From the IMG/VR virus record IMGVR_UViG_3300008113_004623, positions 1 through 64,000 of that record: a DNA stretch of 64,000 bases, one strand, 5' to 3'. Origin of the DNA: a virus. The notes under the pieces are model-generated. The model had not been told where the DNA came from, did not search any database, and was given only the letters and a program-made list of their open reading frames with translations. Position numbers and translations under genes: made by a program. This document shows, in pieces, positions 4,151 through 20,214 of the stretch; the first letter of the stretch is position 1, and each line of letters begins with the position of its first letter.

Positions 4151-7100
4151 TAATTCTTCTGGATTTAGTGGCATTGAATATTTAAATCAATCTGGAAACG
4201 TAAGAGTATTTACTGGGTTTAATAACAACAATGGAACAGAATTTAGATTTAATAACATAGCTACAAATGGTTTTATTCAATTTATAATACCAACTGATGC
4301 AAGTAGTTATGTAGATTTTGGTTCGGGTTATAGTGGAGGGGTTGTCACAAATTCATTGTTTAGATTTAGAAGTAATGGTAATGTCCTAATAGGAACAACT
4401 ACAGACACAGGACATAAACTAAGAGTACAAGGAACAGTATCAGCAGTATTAACTAATGCAACACATACAAACGCAGTATACTACAATACAACTACAGGAG
4501 AACTTACTTATGGTGCTTTGCCTGTAGTTGCTACTCCTACATTGCAACAAGTAACTACAGCAGGTAACATAACCACAAATGCAGTAAGGGTAGAAATTGC
4601 ATCTGGCGATGGGTTATTTTTAAAAGCAGCAACTAGTGGAGTTTCGTATCCTTTAATTATGGCTGCTGATTCAGCAGGAAGAGGATTTGTTATAGGATCT
4701 AGTGCATTAACTTTTACTAGTAGAGCAACCTACGGTGTTCAATTTAACGTAAGAAGCAATTATAGTGAAATACAAGCATATACTAATATATCAATAGGAA
4801 CTCCTTATCCATTTATTATAAATCCTACTGGAGGGGATGTGTTGATTGGTACTACAACGCTTTCGGGATATAAACTTGATGTAGTAGGAAGTACTAGAGT
4901 TTCAAGTTTATATATAAATTCTACAGCAGGTATTGATATTCTAGGCTTAGGAGGTATTTCAAGATTAGGATTTCCATCTTCTGCAATTGTTTTAGGAGCT
5001 GCATTTACTACAGCTCGGTTGTTTATACACGATGCCAGTTCTGTAACAATTACAACAGCATCTTCTTTTTCAGCTGTAGCAAGTTCCTTATTAACTATTG
5101 ATTCTACTACTCAAGGTTTTCTACAGCCTCGCATGACCAATGCACAGGTACTGGCAATCGCTACGCCTGCAACAGGATTACAAGCATACGATACTACAAA
5201 CAACAAGAATCTTTTATACAACGGAACAGCTTGGCAAAACATAGCTACCGAATCTTGGGTAACAGCACAAGGTTACTTAACTTCAGTTACAGAAACAGAC
5301 ACACTACAAAGCGTTACTAACAGAGGAGCTACAACTACTAATCCTATTACAGTACATACTTTATACATAGGTAAAGGAGGAGGAAATGAAGAAACCAATA
5401 CAGCCGTAGGATACAATGCTCTTGTAAGTAACACAGTTCCTTATTATGGGGCAGGATTTAGAAACACAGCATTTGGATACAACGCACTTACTGCAAATAC
5501 TATAGGTTCCTACAATACAGTTATGGGACGGAGTGCAGGTGCATCTAACACAACAGGAAATGGTAACACATTTATAGGAGAAGGAGCAGGAGAGCAAAAT
5601 ACAACAGGAGGTAGTAACGTATATATTGGAAATACTAGTGGGGGAAATCAAACTACTTCTCAGAATACTTACGTAGGTTCATCTGCTGGTTATAGTGCAG
5701 CTGTAGGAACAGGTTACAGTACTTATATAGGCTATTTAGCAGGACACGCTACAACAGGTGGAGATAATGTTTTCTTAGGACATAGAGCTGGTTTTGGTTC
5801 CACTAACAGTAACTGGTTTATTATAGGCAACAGAAACAATGCAAGTTTAATTGAAGGTAACTTCTCTACAGGTAACGTAATGATTGGTACCTCAACGGAT
5901 AGTGGTTATAAACTAGATGTTAATGGAACGACTAGAATTTCAGGAAGCTTAACTGTAGATACAAATACTTTATTTGTAGACGCTGCTAATAATAGAGTTG
6001 GTATAGGTACTACTAGTCCCGATTCTCTACTTACTGTCTCAGCAGATAAGTTTGGTACTCTTGGAGGATCAATATCTGTGGTTAATAGTTCAGAAGGAGG
6101 CGGAAGCGTTTCAGGTATTTTTATGGGTAGTTACGCTCGTAAGACTGCTATTTTCTACAACTGGACAGCTAACTACGGACGTGGAGAGTTAATTTTTGCA
6201 ACTAATAACGTAGCTGATGCAAGCAATGCGTGGATTACTGATGGCAAAATGCATATTAAAGCCAACGGAAACGTTACTATTGGAACTTCAACTGATTCAG
6301 GATTTAAACTAGATGTCAACGGTAATACAATTATTCGTGGCAACTTGTCTATGACCGATGCAACTAACCGTTACATCTACGGAATTAACGGAAACTACAT
6401 CAATTTATACAACGGAGGAACAGGTGGTGTAGAAATTTACGGATTGAACGGAACTGCAGAAAACAAAGTTTACGGAGCACTTAGAGTAACAGGAAACTTG
6501 ATTACTCAAGGTTCATTCAGTATGAACGGAAGTCTAGACATCGGTAGTAACAATAGTGTATATGCTATGTCTAATGGTATTACTTTGTATAGAGGTTTTG
6601 ACGCAAGCATGCAGTTCTATCTAGGGCACCCAACAGTTGGAGATTTCCTTTGGGATTACCCCGCAGGCACTACACTTATGACTCTTAGGCGTGGAGGAAA
6701 CTTGCTTATTGGAACAACTACTGATAGCGGATATAAGCTCAACGTAAATGGCTCGTTTAGATCTAACGGAGATAGTTATGTAGCTTCTGCTAATGGTCGT
6801 GTGTTTGGTTTTGACGGATTAAGTGCAGGCCAAACTTTACACTTCCAATACGGAGGAGATTCTAGTCACCGTATAAGTACGACTCACGGCAGCGCAGCAC
6901 AGATGGATGCATATCACGGATTAATTATCCGTACTAGTCCTGCAAGTGGAGGTAAGGCTCTTATTGTTAACCAAAGAAACTCTGCCCACTTTATCCAAGA
7001 GTGGCAAGAGAACGGCACGCAGAAAGCCTACATCAACTCTCAAGGTAATCTTTACTTAGCCCAACTAGATGCGGGAGCAGACGGTCCCGTAATTTCTACA

Positions 7101-7217
7101 AGTGGATTACTAAGTAGCGTGGCTGGGTATACAGGCACAGTAACAATCCAACAACCTGCTCCTTTGCCTCCGATTAACATTGATGTTCAAAATGGTATCA
7201 TTGTTAACGTTTTTTAA
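4131..7217 (+). CDS. long tail fibre, C-terminal part
   Basis: same GYKLDVNG modules; NTAVGYNAL/NTFIG beta-helix repeats; continues the previous ORF in the +1 frame. Confidence 0.75.
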   Translation: MLMVQNSNSSGFSGIEYLNQSGNVRVFTGFNNNNGTEFRFNNIATNGFIQFIIPTDASSYVDFGSGYSGGVVTNSLFRFRSNGNVLIGTTTDTGHKLRVQGTVSAVLTNATHTNAVYYNTTTGELTYGALPVVATPTLQQVTTAGNITTNAVRVEIASGDGLFLKAATSGVSYPLIMAADSAGRGFVIGSSALTFTSRATYGVQFNVRSNYSEIQAYTNISIGTPYPFIINPTGGDVLIGTTTLSGYKLDVVGSTRVSSLYINSTAGIDILGLGGISRLGFPSSAIVLGAAFTTARLFIHDASSVTITTASSFSAVASSLLTIDSTTQGFLQPRMTNAQVLAIATPATGLQAYDTTNNKNLLYNGTAWQNIATESWVTAQGYLTSVTETDTLQSVTNRGATTTNPITVHTLYIGKGGGNEETNTAVGYNALVSNTVPYYGAGFRNTAFGYNALTANTIGSYNTVMGRSAGASNTTGNGNTFIGEGAGEQNTTGGSNVYIGNTSGGNQTTSQNTYVGSSAGYSAAVGTGYSTYIGYLAGHATTGGDNVFLGHRAGFGSTNSNWFIIGNRNNASLIEGNFSTGNVMIGTSTDSGYKLDVNGTTRISGSLTVDTNTLFVDAANNRVGIGTTSPDSLLTVSADKFGTLGGSISVVNSSEGGGSVSGIFMGSYARKTAIFYNWTANYGRGELIFATNNVADASNAWITDGKMHIKANGNVTIGTSTDSGFKLDVNGNTIIRGNLSMTDATNRYIYGINGNYINLYNGGTGGVEIYGLNGTAENKVYGALRVTGNLITQGSFSMNGSLDIGSNNSVYAMSNGITLYRGFDASMQFYLGHPTVGDFLWDYPAGTTLMTLRRGGNLLIGTTTDSGYKLNVNGSFRSNGDSYVASANGRVFGFDGLSAGQTLHFQYGGDSSHRISTTHGSAAQMDAYHGLIIRTSPASGGKALIVNQRNSAHFIQEWQENGTQKAYINSQGNLYLAQLDAGADGPVISTSGLLSSVAGYTGTVTIQQPAPLPPINIDVQNGIIVNVF

Positions 7218-7218
7218 C

Positions 7219-7248
7219 TTGATTTTTTAACATAAATAATTAAATTTG
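7219..7248 (+). promoter_or_regulatory. Bacteroidota sigma-A type promoter
   Basis: TTG(7219)-N19-TAAATTTG(7241-7248), 7 nt before ATG 7256. Confidence 0.7.
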
Positions 7249-7255
7249 TAGTATC

Positions 7256-7552
7256 ATGACTAAAATAGAAGACGTAATAGTTCCAAGCAGAGGTACTGGT
7301 AAGTACTTTGGAATTAAATGTTTGCAAATAGATATCGCTAAAAACACTGCGGTAGCTCCATCATTCTACTGGCACGTAAAAACAGAAGACACTCAGTTAG
7401 TATCTGACGTGGAAACTGTAGTTCCTGGAGTTACCATCCTTGACGGAAACTTGTCTATGACTCCCGAAGAATATGCTTTGTGGGGTACTGATGACTCTTA
7501 CGTAATTGACTGGGCTCTTGCTAAACTTGGTTTTGTAGAGATTCCCGAGTAA
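7256..7552 (+). CDS. fibre-associated small protein (possible assembly chaperone)
   Basis: GNL.MT.EEY..WG.DD..V..W....LG motif; located directly after the fibre. Confidence 0.55.
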   Translation: MTKIEDVIVPSRGTGKYFGIKCLQIDIAKNTAVAPSFYWHVKTEDTQLVSDVETVVPGVTILDGNLSMTPEEYALWGTDDSYVIDWALAKLGFVEIPE

Positions 7553-7584
7553 TTTTGAATAACACGTTTAATTAAACCAACCAT

Positions 7585-7854
7585 ATGTCTACTAAAAAAA
7601 TTGACTTAAACAAAGCTATCACAGATCTTGATGGCAAAGAAATTGAAGGTTCTAACTTAGGTAAGTTAGTTGCACAGGTATTGGCTTCTTCTAACAAAGG
7701 GGACGCTCTAAAGTACATGTCTTGGGCTTTAAAATTGCATGCAGGAGAAAGCTTAGAGCTAGATCCTTCTGATGCAGAGACCCTAAAGAATTTTGTAAAA
7801 GACCACGAGCAGTTAACTATCTTAACTAAAGCTCAGGTATTAGGCGCATTCTAA
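7585..7854 (+). CDS. hypothetical protein
   Basis: 89-aa ORF with AAACCAACC leader. Confidence 0.65.
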   Translation: MSTKKIDLNKAITDLDGKEIEGSNLGKLVAQVLASSNKGDALKYMSWALKLHAGESLELDPSDAETLKNFVKDHEQLTILTKAQVLGAF

Positions 7855-7856
7855 TT

Positions 7857-8132
7857 ATGGCTGAAGCAAGAATACCTTTGACCCCAGAAGAAAAGCAACA
7901 GTTAGAAGCTTTTCAAAATAAAGTACACCAAGTTATTATTGACTTAGGTAAGATTGAATTACAACTTAGTGACTTACTAAATGTTAAGGAACAAGTTAAA
8001 AAGGTAATGGCTGATGTTGTAACTCAACAGAACCAATACTTTGCTGACTTAGAAACCAAGTATGGGAAAGGCGGAGTAGATCCACAATCTTACGAGTACG
8101 TAGTTTCTGGAGAAGATTTAGAAGCAAATTAA
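7857..8132 (+). CDS. coiled-coil protein (possible fibre chaperone)
   Basis: heptad-like helix ending LETKYGKGGVDP. Confidence 0.6.
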   Translation: MAEARIPLTPEEKQQLEAFQNKVHQVIIDLGKIELQLSDLLNVKEQVKKVMADVVTQQNQYFADLETKYGKGGVDPQSYEYVVSGEDLEAN

Positions 8133-8152
8133 AAGCAAATTAAAAAAGTTTT

Positions 8153-8254
8153 TTGGCGATTACAGATATTCTATTATATTTGTATCACCATTCAACCTTC
8201 TGTTTTCGTTCTTTATTACCGCAAAAAGGCAGCACCCCCTAGTGCTGCTTTTTT
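8153..8254 (+). ncRNA. candidate ~65-nt small RNA with its own promoter and terminator
   Basis: TTG(8153)-N19-TATATTTG(8175-8182), no ORF, then AAAAAGGCAGCAC-CCCCTA-GTGCTGCTTTTTT. Confidence 0.5.
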
Positions 8255-8272
8255 GTTTGTATACGAGTCTAC

Positions 8273-8302
8273 TTGACTTTATTTATAAATTAACTATTTT
8301 TG
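8273..8302 (+). promoter_or_regulatory. Bacteroidota sigma-A type promoter
   Basis: TTG(8273)-N19-TATTTTTG(8295-8302). Confidence 0.7.
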
Positions 8303-8324
8303 TGAACAACCGATATTCTGTTAC

Positions 8325-8672
8325 ATGAGGGACATGAGATTTAGACCAGAGTTCATGGGCAACGGACACGCTGGCCAGGTCAAAGATCTTATTGTTAAAG
8401 GTCGCAGTAGAGTTACTCATTTAAACTTAATAGATTACAATGCGTTGAAATTTATGCAGGGTTCTATTGAGGGTATTTCTATTGACGGCAATCTTGCAAC
8501 AGTACAGGATGCTATTGGAGAGTTCCAGACTACTTTAGTGATTGACCAGCGTCTAGCTAGTTTTGACCTGAAGTTCTTTGATAAATACTCTACAGTATCT
8601 TACTTGTTGTATGACGACCTTGGAGAGCCTGGTTATCTACTAACAGAATTAGGAGAAAGACTTATCGTTTAA
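8325..8672 (+). CDS. hypothetical virion-associated protein
   Basis: 115 aa; first gene after the promoter; C-terminal YLLTELGERL. Confidence 0.6.
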   Translation: MRDMRFRPEFMGNGHAGQVKDLIVKGRSRVTHLNLIDYNALKFMQGSIEGISIDGNLATVQDAIGEFQTTLVIDQRLASFDLKFFDKYSTVSYLLYDDLGEPGYLLTELGERLIV

Positions 8673-8673
8673 G

Positions 8674-9981
8674 ATGGCAACAGTATTAGAAAGAAGAACC
8701 TCGCAACTACCCATACTAACTAGTCTTAGTGCGGTAGATTATATTGTCATTCTTAAACAGGGAGTGACAGGTCTTGCTTCTGTAAGCGAGGTAACTGCTG
8801 CTTCTTTTTCTGGAAAAACAACCGACCAACTAACTGAAGGATCTAACAATCTTTATTTTACGTCAGGTAGAGTTGTTCAAGAAATTCTAAACACGTTAGT
8901 AGCAGGTACAAATGTTTCCTTTAATTATAATTTAGGCACAAACAAAATTACAATTAACTCTACGGGAAACGTAATCAGCGTAAATAATAAGTCAGGTGCC
9001 GTTAGTTTAAACACAGATGACATAAGTGAAGGCTCGACCAATCGTTATTTTTCAGATGAAAGAGTAGACGACAGAGTTGCTGGTTTACTTCAGGCAGGAT
9101 CTAACGTATCTATAGTTTACGACGATAATCTTAACAGGATTGTAATTAGTAGTGTGGGTAACGTACAGAGCGTTAACGGAGCCGTAGGAAACGTTGTTTT
9201 AACTTCAGATAATATAAACGAGGGGACCTCGAATCTTTACTTTACAACAACTCGAGCTAACCAGTGGTTTACAAGCCAGACTACTACAAGTTTAGCAGAG
9301 GGCAATAATCTTTATTTTACACAAGCTAGAGCAGTTGCTTCTGTTTTAACAGGTTTAACTAGTCAATCAAACGTTCAGATTACTGCAACGGACTCTATTT
9401 TAGTTGCGTTTGGTAAACTCCAAACCCAACACACAACTCTTCTTAACTCTACAAACGCTCATACAGCACGCACAGACAATCCTCACGGAGTAACTAAAGC
9501 ACAAGTAGGATTAGATAACGTTCCAAACGTTAATACGACAAACGCAGATAACATTACAAGTGGGACTCTAGCAGATGCGCGACTTTCTGCTAACGTAACT
9601 CAACAAGGAAACACGTTTAACGTAGCAAATAAATTAGTTAGATTAGACGCTCTAGGAAAACTTCCTGCAATAGATGGATCTCAACTTACGGGCTTGGTTT
9701 CTCAAATTGCTAACCTATCGGATGTTCAGCTTACCTCACTAGCTCCTGGAGAAAGTTTAGTTTACAACGGAACCAAGTGGACTAACCAAATTACCACAGC
9801 AGATGTACGCCACGACTACGTAGGTGTCTACTCTTATTGTGGAAAGGCTCCTCAGTTAAGTTCTGAAAGTGCTGCTGTTTGGAAAATTAAAAGAATCCAA
9901 GTTTTAGCAGACGGAAACGTACTTATTACCCAAGCAAACAATGTGACCTGGACAGGTCGCCTAACCCATACATATTCATAA
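8674..9981 (+). CDS. tail fibre/spike protein
   Basis: repeated TD.L.EG..NLYFT..R, VQSVNG..G.V.L and NPHGVTKAQVGL fibre motifs. Confidence 0.75.
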   Translation: MATVLERRTSQLPILTSLSAVDYIVILKQGVTGLASVSEVTAASFSGKTTDQLTEGSNNLYFTSGRVVQEILNTLVAGTNVSFNYNLGTNKITINSTGNVISVNNKSGAVSLNTDDISEGSTNRYFSDERVDDRVAGLLQAGSNVSIVYDDNLNRIVISSVGNVQSVNGAVGNVVLTSDNINEGTSNLYFTTTRANQWFTSQTTTSLAEGNNLYFTQARAVASVLTGLTSQSNVQITATDSILVAFGKLQTQHTTLLNSTNAHTARTDNPHGVTKAQVGLDNVPNVNTTNADNITSGTLADARLSANVTQQGNTFNVANKLVRLDALGKLPAIDGSQLTGLVSQIANLSDVQLTSLAPGESLVYNGTKWTNQITTADVRHDYVGVYSYCGKAPQLSSESAAVWKIKRIQVLADGNVLITQANNVTWTGRLTHTYS

Positions 9982-9985
9982 AATT

Positions 9986-10282
9986 ATGCCTATACAATCA
10001 ACACAACCAACCATTGTAGACGGAGTAGAATATCCCCTTCTCCTTGTTAACTTAGCTATATCTCCTGTAGTACACGAAGGCGGTATTATTGGAGCATCTG
10101 TAGCTATGCGTTTAACTCCGTATAGAGAAGTAGGAGGAGCTATTGAGCAACTACCAGACCACGCAAAAGCCGTTTCATATTTTGACGTATTCAAAGAAGC
10201 TGAGACTGATCCTGAGATTGCTTCTGCAATTGAGAAGATCATGACTGGTCTTCAAGAATTTATTACAGATAAAGGATTGTAA
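9986..10282 (+). CDS. hypothetical protein (fibre module)
   Basis: 98 aa, closely spaced between fibre genes. Confidence 0.6.
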   Translation: MPIQSTQPTIVDGVEYPLLLVNLAISPVVHEGGIIGASVAMRLTPYREVGGAIEQLPDHAKAVSYFDVFKEAETDPEIASAIEKIMTGLQEFITDKGL

Positions 10283-10284
10283 GT

Positions 10285-11908
10285 ATGGCATTAAGGGTAG
10301 CACTAGCATCAGGAAATTGGTCAAATCCAGCAATATGGAATAACGGTGTTTTACCTGTTGCTGGTGATGTGGTTGCATCAAACGGATTTACTGTCACGAT
10401 TGATCAGAACATTACTGTAGATACGCTAACTAATACTGTACAAACTCCTGTTATTATTACCCCTGCAATGACTTCGAATACTGCACCAAGTGGTATTGTT
10501 ACTGCAAGCGGTGTTTTTGGTGGAGGATTTGAAGCTTGGCGTGCATTTGATAGGGTTTTTAATAACTGGTTAAGTGCAGGTCCTACGGGTTGGGTAGCAT
10601 ATGAATTTACAAGTCCTAAAATTGTACAGATTTATCAAATGGTTCCTCCTACAAACAATGCTCCAGGGTCTGTTCCAAGAAACTGGACGTTTGAAGCATG
10701 GGACGGAACGACTTGGGTAGTTTTAGATACGGTCACTGGCAATTCAGGCACGGCAACTGTGACAAGAACAACGACCAATACTACAGCGTATATAAGATAC
10801 AGAATTAATATTACATTAAACAACGGAGACTTAGCTTACACTGGTGTGACTGAGTTGCGTATGTATGAAGCTAATGACTACACGATAAATTCAGTAGCAG
10901 GGGGTGGATTTATTTTAAATAGTGGATATACGGTTAATGCGAATTTAACGGGAGGTGCTGTAGATTTGCTTACTTATACTAACATTAAATATTACAGGCG
11001 ACATTGTAAACAATAATGCAGGCATGGTCGTTAGGATTGCGAATACAGGAACTTTGAATATTATCGGGAATGTATATAATACAACTGCTAGTTATGGAAA
11101 CTGTTTAAATATTATTGCCAATGCTACTGTAAATATTACAGGTAATATTTTTACATCAGGCGTTTCAGTTTTTTCGAATCAAACATTAATTGCTGTTAGT
11201 GCTGCTTCCACGCTTAATATTGTTGGAAATGTAACACATATTTCTAGTAACAGCACTAGTTCTTCATGTATAGCCATAACTGCTTCAGCAACGATTAGAA
11301 TAACAGGCGTGGTTACTGGCGGTGATTTTAGTTCTTCTTGTAATGCTGTATCGACTAATGCAGCGTGTTTGTTAAATATCGTTGGAAGTATTATATCAAG
11401 ACCACCACCAAATGGAATAGGTCCAGCAGTAGTGTCTACTAATAGTAGTGCTATTAATTTGTTTTCAGGACCTTTTATTTGTAATAACTACGGCTTTGTT
11501 CCTTTTCAGTGCATCCGTATGCATTTAATACCGAACGTTACATCATACTTTGAATTCAGAGACGAGACCACAAATGGTGCGGTGTCTCCAGGAGCAATAG
11601 CACCCGCTGCAAGACTTGTTTCTCCTGGCGGAGCAGTAGACGCTCCAATTCCAGCCAATGTTCGCTCAGGCATTAGTTATGCCTCTGGAACTTTATTAGG
11701 AACAATGGCAGTACCTTCTCCATCAAACGTAGCCAACAATGTGCCTGTAGATAATACAGTAGGAACTGCAATACTAGATCCTAATGCAATTTGGTCTGTT
11801 CCTTTAGCATCTATCAATACTCTAAACAGTATAGGTCGAAGAGTTAAAAACGCTGCTACAGTAGAAACTACTGGAGCACAAATAGAAAGTATATTAAATA
11901 GTTTATAA
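10285..11908 (+). pseudogene. receptor-binding protein with discoidin/F5-8C-like domain, split into 10285..11016 and 11024..11908
   Basis: the two halves align with the N- and C-terminal parts of intact paralogue 11910..13592; frame changes near 10980. Confidence 0.65.
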
Positions 11909-15267: not shown

Positions 15268-15633
15268 ATGAAAACAATCTTAGGAATCTTTTCTCTATTT
15301 ATTGTAGCCATTGGGGCTGCAATCTTTACTACGGACAGTGCTCAGCCTGCTCCGTTTAACCCAGCGGCATCTAAATATGTGTTAGTACAGTTTAATGCTA
15401 GTTGGCACAGTTCTCCTAACGTAACTGGATTTGAAACAATCAAGTGGTGCGCTTATCAAGAAGTAGACATAGCTAAGAACCCCTTAGCAAAGTCCAAGCA
15501 TAAGATCCTCACCCTCCCCACTGTAATCTTTTTTAAAGACGGTGTAGAAGTAAAACGTTGGGAAGCTGGAATTGGAATGAAAGCATCATTTACAGCTCAA
15601 CAGATTGGTGCAGAAATTCAGCGTTTAAAATAA
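15268..15633 (+). CDS. exported thioredoxin-fold protein lacking CxxC
   Basis: N-terminal signal/TM; VLVQFNASW and I.TLPTVIFFKDG.EV.R motifs. Confidence 0.7.
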   Translation: MKTILGIFSLFIVAIGAAIFTTDSAQPAPFNPAASKYVLVQFNASWHSSPNVTGFETIKWCAYQEVDIAKNPLAKSKHKILTLPTVIFFKDGVEVKRWEAGIGMKASFTAQQIGAEIQRLK

Positions 15634-15654
15634 GGTAGTTTCCAAATATAGAAG

Positions 15655-15693
15655 TACCCTAGGCAAACAAGTTTTGCCAGGGTATTTTTATTT
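15655..15693 (+). terminator. intrinsic terminator
   Basis: TACCCT(A)GGCAAAC-AA-GTTTTGCCAGGGTA followed by TTTTTATTT. Confidence 0.7.
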
Positions 15694-15694
15694 A

Positions 15695-15997
15695 ATAGCA
15701 ATCTTATAGTACAGCAGTCTCGACAAGAAGGGAAGAGAGCGAATCCTACATTCCAATCAGCTTGTTTACCAAACGCTGTCGAAGCTACGCAGAGCTGTCG
15801 ACAATGAGTCCATATTGTGTCCACCCTTTTGCCTAGCCGTGCTAGGGTATGGCACTGTACCTTTCAAATAACTACCTTTTTTGACACTATCGGAGAAACC
15901 TCTGTTCACTTCTTTGAGTTACTAATACTATCCGACTTCTGGCCTGCTACTTCACAATCGTGCCCTCACAGGCGATCACCTGGTAAGATGGTGTCGC
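15695..15997 (-). ncRNA. candidate ~300-nt structured RNA
   Basis: GC-richer island with at least five hairpins, a minus-strand promoter-like site at 16030-16000, and no credible ORF. Confidence 0.5.
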
Positions 15998-16045
15998 TGC
16001 AATATTAGAAAGAAAATTCGAGAAGTGCAACAGGGTGCTGCACAA

Positions 16046-16309
16046 TTATTTTGTAGCGCGTGCTTCGGGTGCACAATCAGAAACCTGTGAGGGAAGTTCG
16101 TCTTCTAGCAAGTCGTCTACTGCCATAAAGACAAACTCGTATAGATACTTGTCTTTGTACGGCTGCTTGCCTAGAAATTTCTTAAAGGATTTATGAAGCT
16201 CAACTTTAAATGCTGAAATATTGCCTGCTATAACTACACCGTATTCGTCTAGTTCCTCTTTGAGGGCTGCAAATACTTCGTCCTTAGTTGGGAGTTTTCT
16301 TTTGAGCAT
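16046..16309 (-). CDS. hypothetical protein, probably near-leaderless
   Basis: minus-strand TATATTTG (16320-16313) lies 3 nt before ATG 16309. Confidence 0.55.
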   Translation of the reverse strand: MLKRKLPTKDEVFAALKEELDEYGVVIAGNISAFKVELHKSFKKFLGKQPYKDKYLYEFVFMAVDDLLEDELPSQVSDCAPEARATK

Positions 16310-16368
16310 ACACAAATATAAATTAATCTTTATTTTTTGCTATTAATATTTTATGTTATAACAAAGGC

Positions 16369-18201: not shown

Positions 18202-20214
18202 ATGTATTTAGACAGTCCTGAATTTCTAATCAACGTTAAACGACTTCCAGACGCAGAGTCTGATGAGTACACTGCGTTTTGGCAGAACGAGGACAAGAAA
18301 ATCAATGAAGGAGTTACTATCAATGGATTTTATTTTTCGCCATTTATCTATTGGCATTTGAATTTTGGCGCATTATATATTGACGAAAAAGTTGGTAATC
18401 GGAATATTAGAAAACTAGGAAAGCCCCAATTATGGGACACTTACCTAGAAGTAGATGATGCAATCTACCGAGCCGAGACCCATTCAGAAGGAAAGAAAGG
18501 GTTAGTTATTGTAGGTAGTCGACGTATCTCAAAAACTATTTTAACTTCTTCGTACATTGCGCACAAAGCAATCACACTTCAGGGAGGAGACAATTTGATA
18601 TCAGCTCTAAACCAACCCGACTTGAATAACACCACTCAAGCCGTAGATTTGATATTAAGAAACCTCCCTGATTATTTTAGATTCCCCCGTATTGAAGATG
18701 ACTGGAAGCGTCAAGTAACTCTTGGTTACAAAGACAAGAAAACCAACGCACGACACGAGTGGTCCAAGATACACGTTAGAAACTTTGACGAAGGCAACAA
18801 CACGGAAGCAGCGGCAGGTCTTACCTTATCTTCGTTTATGCTTGAAGAAGCAGGTAAGGGTAGAATCCTAAACTGCTTGGCTGCGACTATTCCTTGTTTT
18901 GACTCACCGTATGGCTGGCGTTGTTCTCCTATTGTAATTGGAACATCGGGAGACATGACGAAAGCAGGAGACTTAGAGGAACTCTTCAATAATCCAGACG
19001 CTTATAACTTTCTTCCTGTAGCTGTAGAAGAATCAGGTAAGTCTTATGGCTTGTTTGTTCCAGGAACTAAATCACTTAAAGTTCCAAAAGAACCAACGCC
19101 TCTTGGACTTTATTTAAAAAAAGAAGAACCCTCCGAATTAGACAATATTACTATTTGGGTAGCTGACCAAGAAAAAGGTCACGAAATGATTATCAAGAAC
19201 AGAGAGCAAGTAAAGAAAGCTTCTGGTCTTGAAGCCTACCTAAAGGAAGTAATGTACTACCCACTCACGCACGAGGAGTGTTTTATGGAAATGTCGCAGA
19301 ACATTTTTCCTGTAGATCTTTTACAAGAACAACTCCAAAAACTAATAGCCAACGAAGTACGTGCAGATTTTGTAGAATTGTACGTAAAGCCTGATGGAAA
19401 GATTGCCCATAAGTTTACCGATAAAAAACCCGTAGAAAACTTCCCTACAAAGCCCGCAGACAACTTAGAGGGCGTGGTTCAAATCTGGGAATATCCTGTA
19501 CTAGATGCACCTTATGGTTTATACACAGCAGGAACTGACCCATATAAACAGTCACAAGCCCAGTACTCTACATCTTTGGGATCAACCTATATTTATAAGC
19601 GAGTACATAATATTTCTGGAGAGGGATGGCAAAACATTGTAGTTGCTTGTTATACAGGTCGACCTAAAAAGATTGAGACGTGGTATGAAACAACCAAGAA
19701 TCTTTTGAAGTTCTACAACGCCAAGACTTTGTGTGAAAACATGGACTATGGTTTTATTCAACACTGTGTTGAGAAGAACGAAGGTCCTCGTATTCTAGAA
19801 CGTACTCCCTCTTTCTTAACAGACATCCACCCCAACTCAATGGTAAACCGTGACTACGGTATCCACATGACTAAGGAAATCAAAGCGTACTTATTGGGTC
19901 TAATCATTGAATACATAACCGAAGTAATTGATGTAGAAAGAGATTCTGACGGCAATATTGTAAAAGAAAGACTAGGCGTAACAAGAATCTTAGATCCTCT
20001 TTTAATAAAAGAATTAATAAAATATACACCAAAACTCAATGTTGACCGTATTATTGCATTTGGTTTGACGCTTGCTATGACTAGAAGTCTTGCGAACAAA
20101 GTTGTCATTCATAGCAACACGGAAGATGATAGGATTCGGGAATATTTTCAAACCAAAAAAATTGCTAGTCCATTTAGGTCTGGCTCCTTAACACCATTTT
20201 CAAGATTTAGATAA
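18202..20214 (+). CDS. terL: terminase large subunit
   Basis: Walker A-like GSRRISKT, Walker B MLEEAGK, VIGTSG, nuclease AGTDPY and NVDRI. Confidence 0.92.
   Translation: MYLDSPEFLINVKRLPDAESDEYTAFWQNEDKKINEGVTINGFYFSPFIYWHLNFGALYIDEKVGNRNIRKLGKPQLWDTYLEVDDAIYRAETHSEGKKGLVIVGSRRISKTILTSSYIAHKAITLQGGDNLISALNQPDLNNTTQAVDLILRNLPDYFRFPRIEDDWKRQVTLGYKDKKTNARHEWSKIHVRNFDEGNNTEAAAGLTLSSFMLEEAGKGRILNCLAATIPCFDSPYGWRCSPIVIGTSGDMTKAGDLEELFNNPDAYNFLPVAVEESGKSYGLFVPGTKSLKVPKEPTPLGLYLKKEEPSELDNITIWVADQEKGHEMIIKNREQVKKASGLEAYLKEVMYYPLTHEECFMEMSQNIFPVDLLQEQLQKLIANEVRADFVELYVKPDGKIAHKFTDKKPVENFPTKPADNLEGVVQIWEYPVLDAPYGLYTAGTDPYKQSQAQYSTSLGSTYIYKRVHNISGEGWQNIVVACYTGRPKKIETWYETTKNLLKFYNAKTLCENMDYGFIQHCVEKNEGPRILERTPSFLTDIHPNSMVNRDYGIHMTKEIKAYLLGLIIEYITEVIDVERDSDGNIVKERLGVTRILDPLLIKELIKYTPKLNVDRIIAFGLTLAMTRSLANKVVIHSNTEDDRIREYFQTKKIASPFRSGSLTPFSRFR

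Follow-up and report, generated by a model that had tools for sequence, protein, structure and literature searches.

Results

Organisation of the locus

The window analysed here is a stretch of 64,000 nucleotides from the start of a virus record of 100.5 kb in IMG/VR (IMGVR_UViG_3300008113_004623), which represents a genome that is 86% complete. Within it, a 412-nt intergenic gap (15634-16045) lies between a thioredoxin-like ORF on the plus strand (15268-15633), assigned by a weak Pfam match below the cut-off, and an acidic ORF of 89 amino acids on the minus strand (16046-16315). Tail-collar and endolysin-like genes are found upstream of the gap, and the packaging operon follows downstream on the plus strand, with TerL (phrog_6681) at 18202-20214 (+). 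Among cultured phages, this TerL is nearest to those of Leptolyngbya phage Lbo-JY46 (39% identity), of two Cellulophaga phages and of crAss-like phages (~30%). The active site of the thioredoxin-fold ORF (15268-15633) reads W-C-A-Y-Q and has a single cysteine, not a CxxC pair. The 89-aa ORF matches no Pfam or PHROG family and gave no fold lead, its Atlas model being poor.

The original prediction described this gap as a GC-rich island of hairpins with its own promoter on the minus strand, and took it for an undescribed structured phage RNA or, alternatively, for an element acting as DNA, for instance an origin. All of the sequences that it quoted are found where it placed them; the enrichment in G and C is modest, with a content of 0.45-0.47 against ~0.32-0.40 in the flanks. 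The Rfam scan that it proposed, carried out with Rfam 15, found nothing at the gathering score anywhere in the window, nor at E<=10 between 15400 and 16400, and ARAGORN found no tRNA or tmRNA in the window; the original prediction, too, had recognised neither in the island. The 100.5-kb genome as a whole has no tRNA gene by RF00005 search, and carries a phage tmRNA gene at genome positions 75544-75892 (+), beyond the window (Rfam RF00023, 84 bits).

Covariation identifies a non-coding RNA on the minus strand

Relatives of the locus were gathered by using TerL as an anchor, which yielded 52 IMG/VR loci. An nhmmer search with the gap sequence matched 39 loci, 29 of them from the TerL set and the others repeats of two contigs already represented; at the loci containing TerL, the match lies 2.0-2.6 kb upstream of it and in constant relative orientation. 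Alignment of this clade shows near-identical blocks that alternate with indel-rich variable stretches, and compensatory changes are obvious by inspection.

The covariation check on relatives, which had also been proposed, gave a strong result. From 25 minus-strand clade sequences (alignment A2), RNAalifold derived 46 base pairs in 11 helices. In this alignment 97.7% of the cells are paired, as against 84.8% in shuffled alignments and 26-43% when the partners are shifted by 1-3 columns; compensatory change is seen at 30 of the 46 pairs (2-7 in the shifted-partner controls), and the covariation score is 0.434 versus 0.198. Alignment A4 holds 87 matches to a covariance model (R1), 80 of them distinct, and was fitted to that model, so that its counts lean towards structure: among the 80 distinct sequences 96.8% of the cells are paired (30-45% with pairing partners shifted by 1-3 columns), 35 of the 46 pairs show compensatory change, and there are 602 double-change cells, compared with 157 in shuffles.

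Read on the minus strand, the pairs include 106 G.U cells and 6 A.C cells, and one helix (P4) holds an invariant G.U. The large excess of G.U over A.C identifies the minus strand as the one that folds. Single-sequence folding gives z -0.94 on the RNA strand and z -2.19 on the plus strand, and thermodynamics alone would therefore have favoured the wrong strand; the folding energy of the RNA strand is within the range of chance, and the evidence beyond chance is the covariation.

Overlapping short ORFs of 68, 47, 63 and 32 amino acids exist in this sequence, and any one of them might be taken for the true gene of the locus. No open frame is shared by the relatives, however, the longest open stretch measuring 39-92 codons in frames that differ between sequences; the lengths of the RNA vary modulo 3, and there is no 3-base periodicity, as variable columns are about equally frequent in each of the three phases (44/69, 43/66 and 50/69). 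We therefore consider a protein-coding explanation to be barely conceivable; to the original prediction, too, these ORFs looked non-coding. Our analysis shows that the minus-strand stretch ~15996-15645 is non-coding and that its fold is kept by selection.

Architecture of the RNA

The predicted transcript of ~350 nt occupies 15645-15996 on the minus strand, its ends being placed by the promoter box and a terminator hairpin, and its fold comprises two domains; all of the elements described below are on this strand. Domain 1 (15883-15995), defined by RNAalifold and pair counts, is a four-way junction and is the part shared by all members of the wider family discussed below. It is closed by P1, GACAC/GUGUC (15995-15991/15887-15883), and contains the hairpins P2 (15990-15987/15980-15977) and P3 (15973-15969/15946-15942), the junction sequence CAGAA (15941-15937) and P4, GUCGGA/UCCGAU (15936-15931/15894-15889), from which a single A leads back to P1. 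Inside P4 lies an exchangeable arm (15895-15930), in which AGUA and GAA flank the hairpin P5 (15919-15917/15910-15908).

An A-rich linker (15861-15882), seen in alignments A2 and A4, joins domain 1 to domain 2 (15709-15860), which is closed by the long-range helix P8 (15860-15854/15715-15709). Within domain 2 are P9, CCAUA/UAUGG (15852-15848/15814-15810), the hairpin P10 (15846-15841/15837-15832), a conserved internal loop that carries the invariant GUGGACA (15831-15815), the hairpin P11 (15803-15793/15786-15777), whose length varies between relatives, and an insert (15776-15716) limited to the window and two related loci (L002 and L003). The window coordinates of P10 and P11 were read by eye, MAFFT having misplaced their 3' arms. 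Compensatory changes in A2 are found at 4/7 pairs of P8, 5/5 of P9, 3/5 of P10 and 4/4 of P11, and in A4 at all pairs of P9, P10 and P11 and at 6/7 of P8. A conserved 3' motif, UAUAAG (15703-15708), comes after P8 in the two-domain forms and is located 10-20 nt past domain 1 in most of the short forms.

Four of the six hairpins in the original prediction are kept in relatives. CCTAGC/GCTAGG (15832-15846) corresponds to P10 and TCGGA/TCCGA to P4, each with compensatory changes, while TGTCGAAGCT/AGCTGTCGACA (15777-15803) takes the place of P11, a covarying hairpin of variable length, its exact pairs in the window having been read by eye. The fourth, at 15972-15997, is retained in part: its inner CACC/GGTG covaries as P2, whereas its outer arms GCGA/TCGC are unsupported and give way across the family to the pairing of GACAC (15995-15991) with GUGUC (15887-15883). 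The proposed ACAAT/ATTGT clashes with helix P9, CCAUA/UAUGG, and is unsupported, and the candidate CAGC..GTTT/AAACGCTG falls inside the insert limited to the window, L002 and L003.

Three further candidate elements were considered and rejected. The block TATAGTACAGCAG (15705-15717), which might be read as a plus-strand promoter, is the 3' strand of P8 together with the tail. A tertiary contact in which UGAGG of the P3 loop would pair with CCUCA of the arm loop is lost, as judged by eye, in L011, in L012 and in type B arms, and a pairing of the P2 loop with the 3' tail is seen in the window only.

Putative transcription signals

A putative -7 box, TAATATTG (16000-16007, -), ends 4 nt before P1, and a -33-like TTG (16028-16030, -), read from the sequence, is placed 20 nt upstream of it. 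The box has one mismatch to TAnnTTTG, which we take to be the -7 box of Bacteroidota promoters. In such promoters a -33 TTTG stands ~19 nt upstream of the -7 box, and the 20-nt spacing of the TTG observed here is typical. This is the minus-strand box to which the original prediction had drawn attention; although the window's own copy carries the mismatch, the position is conserved, with TAnnTT(T/C)G located 4-7 nt ahead of P1 in 41 of 45 two-domain relatives. The short forms have other -10-like boxes at the matching position, a difference that would point to other hosts. Across the window there is no enrichment of the full two-part promoter pattern (3 found against 2.5 expected), and for this reason the argument for a promoter rests on positional conservation. 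The location of the box just before P1 places the predicted start of the RNA at P1, at positions 15996-15993.

At the other end of the transcript, a hairpin at 15654-15685 is common to both strands and thus to the RNA and the thioredoxin-like gene that converges on it. We infer that it serves as the terminator of the RNA; a terminator scan calls a plus-strand terminator at 15662-15678, and the minus-strand tail of the shared hairpin is only moderately U-rich. A second hairpin, followed by a U-rich run, is predicted at 16025-16043 (-) from the MFE fold and the sequence. This putative terminator of the 89-aa ORF, which lies directly upstream on the same strand, would be likely to separate that ORF from the promoter of the RNA.

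A widespread family with an invariant junction

Pattern scans and the covariance model located domain 1 in ~20 further viral contigs and in at least 80 metagenome loci, which raises the count for the family above 100 loci across IMG/VR and JGI metagenomes. The names of the records suggest that the carriers inhabit lakes, the sea, the rumen and soil. Many members are short forms of 115-170 nt that have no domain 2 of the window type, and some carry other 3' domains, as in L293, which runs for ~310 nt to a terminator of its own. Downstream of the short form in three contigs, and on the same strand, we observed ~850 nt with no ORFs (L255:4200-5000, L258:3800-4690 and L259:4650-5540); these stretches may hold further RNA domains or genes.

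Cultured phages and bacterial genomes yielded little. A blastn search at E<=10 against 50,697 GenBank records of cultured phages returned chance matches only, and the covariance model found no match near TerL in Cellulophaga phage phi17:2 or Lbo-JY46. In the GTDB bacterial genomes the 118 16-mer matches are at the level of chance, and just one of them, L172, also matches the covariance model; it comes from a metagenome-assembled genome, where its contig measures 3.6 kb.

The sequences GACAC, YAGAAGUCGGR and YCCGAUAGUGUC are near-invariant in domain 1. Across 42 representatives P1, P4 and the junctions hardly change, apart from a switch between A-U and G-C at the sixth pair of P4 in 11 of the 42. 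Some 25 nearly invariant nucleotides cluster at the multi-helix junction, while the peripheral helices vary freely. An invariant junction surrounded by variable helices is typical of small ribozymes, in which phages are rich, and the presence of the family in many unrelated phages would also be consistent with a self-cleaving or otherwise catalytic RNA, in which AGAAGU and GAUAGUG would form the active site and the arms would stabilise it. Against this, no Rfam ribozyme model matches at E<=10 and no cleavage-site signature was seen. The likeness to the hairpin ribozyme breaks down on topology: that ribozyme has a loop A (AGAA opposite A/GUC) between helices H1 and H2, with G+1 unpaired, and although our RNA contains AGAA and then GUC, it lacks H1, and the would-be G+1 and U+2 of the cleavage site sit in the covarying P1. 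We regard a ribozyme as the main rival explanation, though an unlikely one.

The exchangeable arm displays the opposite pattern of conservation. It is in every case a hairpin with covarying stems, and three types occur in the clade. The L002 sequence is 94% identical to the window outside the arm, yet the arm itself (~L002:4500-4560) is wholly replaced, and both alleles are present in metagenome contigs, the window type in L262 and the L002 type in L281. Judged from these sequences, the swap looks like the exchange of a cassette by recombination. The arm was also considered as a guide, a role that we reject on the grounds that there are few arm types, that these are structured and have covarying stems, and that the genome holds no second copy.

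A variable arm would likewise be compatible with an RNA that serves a reverse transcriptase as template or partner, as in retrons, DGR, DRT or UG27, and Bacteroidota phages are known to carry RT-linked arrays of structured RNAs (bioRxiv 10.64898/2026.09.22.753630). The RNA described here is nevertheless single-copy in the 100.5-kb genome, with no second copy or repeat of any part; this genome, at 86% completeness, has no match to RVT_1 (PF00078), and no reverse transcriptase was noticed among the neighbouring genes examined. A link to reverse transcription is accordingly highly improbable.

Genomic context and accessory status

The RNA adjoins the terminase genes of three unrelated TerL families, namely phrog_6681 in the window and L097, phrog_9 in L084, and phrog_2 in L100 and L292. 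The RNA and the terminase run in the same direction in L097, L100 and L292, so that its orientation relative to the terminase is reversed between L097 and the window. In L337 it adjoins an endolysin-like gene, and in L097, L329 and L293 it is within or beside tRNA arrays on the same strand. L097 is a phage contig of ~100 kb with a single array of 18 or more tRNA genes (5786-10303, -); the array stops ~430 nt before the RNA of this contig, which is followed by the terminase operon on the same strand. The cultured relatives phi17:2 and Lbo-JY46 have a large tRNA array just ahead of the packaging operon (817-4284 in L254 and 1628-6168 in L253, respectively), and the phi17:2 array is opposite in strand to TerL, as is the RNA in the window.

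In 14 of ~22 clade loci a homologue of the 89-aa ORF precedes the RNA core by ~110 nt, and in many relatives the ORF and the RNA form one inverted island. The ORF is missing at loci that have no RNA, and it is missing also from L003, which bears the RNA. We considered its product as a partner of the RNA and rejected this assignment, because the protein has no family or fold lead and L003 has the RNA with no such ORF; no protein partner was found.

The covariance model has no match in L008, whose TerL is 94% identical to that of the window, or in 12 other TerL relatives. The corresponding slot is empty and only 110-150 nt long in L008 (4025-4136) and L036 (3949-4097), where both the RNA and the 89-aa ORF are absent. 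The unit is an inverted, self-contained accessory island that has been gained and lost.

The absence of the island from close TerL relatives argues against an essential role as a pac or cos site or an origin. Packaging sites of these kinds are classically found immediately ahead of the genes for the small and large terminase, which is where the island lies, and a signal acting at the level of DNA, whether for packaging, for replication or as a folded single strand that initiates it, would also allow for the wobble pairs, since G.T can form in folded single-stranded DNA. Such a signal would have to be dispensable to L008 and the 12 other relatives, however, and it would not account for a promoter box that is conserved right where P1 begins at its 5' end, for copies that sit in tRNA arrays or by lysis genes, or for an orientation that flips with respect to the terminase. 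The origin-like DNA element entertained in the original prediction fares poorly on the same evidence, as the pairing is strand-specific and close relatives have the packaging genes with no island, and we hold a DNA-level signal to be very improbable.

The same location directly upstream of the terminase genes, in three unrelated TerL families and with shared orientation in L097, L100 and L292, could also reflect control of the terminase operon in cis, by a co-oriented leader or, where the RNA is inverted, by divergent promoters or transcriptional interference. In the clade of the window the RNA faces away from the operon and has its own putative terminator; elsewhere it stands beside endolysin or tRNA genes, and there are relatives with the operon and no RNA. 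Antisense control of phage genes was rejected as well, as the window contains no complementarity of >=12 nt beyond that found in shuffles. Regulation of the operon in cis is thus improbable, though less so than a DNA-level signal.

Comparison with known RNAs

A search of 17 family-bearing loci with Rfam detected tRNAs only, and together with the results for the window this shows that the family is absent from Rfam 15. The conclusion of the original prediction, that the island encodes an undescribed structured phage RNA on the minus strand, is thereby borne out by covariation, the position of the promoter box, the lack of an Rfam match and the lack of codon-like conservation.

The closest analogues are the GOLLD and ROOL RNAs and the T4 RNAs rnaC and rnaD, and the RNA is a member of none of these. 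The T4 rnaC and rnaD (species 1 and 2) are stable, non-decoding RNAs in a tRNA cluster and have no known function. The likeness, drawn by description only, is that of stable RNA genes in the neighbourhood of tRNA genes; the RNA described here differs in having a putative promoter of its own, in usually standing alone and in residing in a phage with no tRNA genes. GOLLD is often found near tRNA genes and in prophages (PMC5737381). Like GOLLD and ROOL, our RNA is phage-borne and stand-alone, has a covarying multi-junction fold, occurs near tRNA genes and is obscure in function (PMC5737381; bioRxiv 10.1101/2024.12.08.627333), and it shares with them an occurrence in lake and rumen metagenomes. 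In contrast to these RNAs, which measure ~580-800 nt and have multiple junctions and pseudoknots, it is 115-350 nt long and is built around one four-way-junction core; its sequence is far more strongly conserved, and it matches no Rfam model.

Domain 1 also resembles tRNA, in that its four-way junction is cloverleaf-shaped and the 5 bp of P1 could stack on the 6 bp of P4 to give a helix near in length to the 12-bp acceptor/T minihelix; in addition, the RNA is found in slots where related phages have tRNA arrays. It has, however, none of the T-loop and D-loop invariants and no CCA by eye, and its junction linkers and arm sizes differ. Short motifs of E. coli 5S rRNA look similar to the RNA. A mimic of 5S rRNA was nonetheless rejected, as the alignment to Flavobacterium 5S (L341) scores within the shuffled range and there is no Rfam match at E<=10.

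Finally, a survey of IMG/VR published in 2023 reported 8,495 unnamed structured-RNA candidates of 29-151 nt (PMC10690425). Our family has in common with these candidates the intergenic IMG/VR source and the evidence from covariation, and is set apart from them by description, as they are short (29-151 nt) and unnamed; a fragment of the family may be listed among them (PMC10690425).

Discussion

Our study reports on a structured RNA encoded on the minus strand of a phage genome and on the family to which it belongs. We propose that the host RNA polymerase would read the RNA from a dedicated promoter of Bacteroidota type, with the first base of P1 as the start, and that transcription would end at the hairpin shared with the converging thioredoxin-like gene, giving a stable, free-standing RNA of ~350 nt. 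Taken together, transcription from an own promoter, a stop at the shared hairpin and a free-standing product of this size are very probable.

The more demanding question is what such an RNA does. A junction that is invariant across hosts and habitats, combined with arms that are exchanged, fits either a site where a conserved protein docks or the core of a catalyst. We favour docking, in which the invariant junction would present a surface to a conserved protein and the RNA would act in trans as a scaffold or decoy, directed at the translation or tRNA apparatus of the host or at an anti-phage nuclease. Given the company of tRNA arrays and tmRNA and the accessory status of the island, the most plausible target would be the machinery of the host for translation, tRNA or defence, and the RNA would then be grouped with the genes for tRNA and tmRNA found in like slots. 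The link to tRNA genes holds in some contexts only, and the phage of the window has no tRNA genes. As a specific account, drawn from location and the pattern of conservation, a protein-docking scaffold or decoy of this kind is a possibility that we put forward tentatively. A bolder version, in which domain 1 represents a new functional class of RNA with an activity of its own, either as a new ribozyme or as a tRNA-shaped decoy, appears to us rather doubtful. The explanation as a whole, that of a selected, structured minus-strand RNA with a predicted promoter of its own and a role in trans, we consider probable.

Few widespread and well-supported classes of structured RNA are still undiscovered, and the phage RNAs GOLLD and ROOL proved to be structurally unprecedented. 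The present family is well suited to biochemistry, with a core of ~115 nt, ~25 invariant nucleotides, clean covariation and hundreds of variants, and comparative tests are aided by natural minimal and extended forms and by presence and absence among near-identical phages. If the RNA were a decoy, it would be an accessory gene, present in phages of several bacterial phyla, that neutralises a conserved factor of the host, such as a defence nuclease directed at tRNA or a protein of translation control. The accessory status of the island and its association with tRNA and tmRNA genes point to RNA-based takeover of the host or counter-defence, of which few examples are known.
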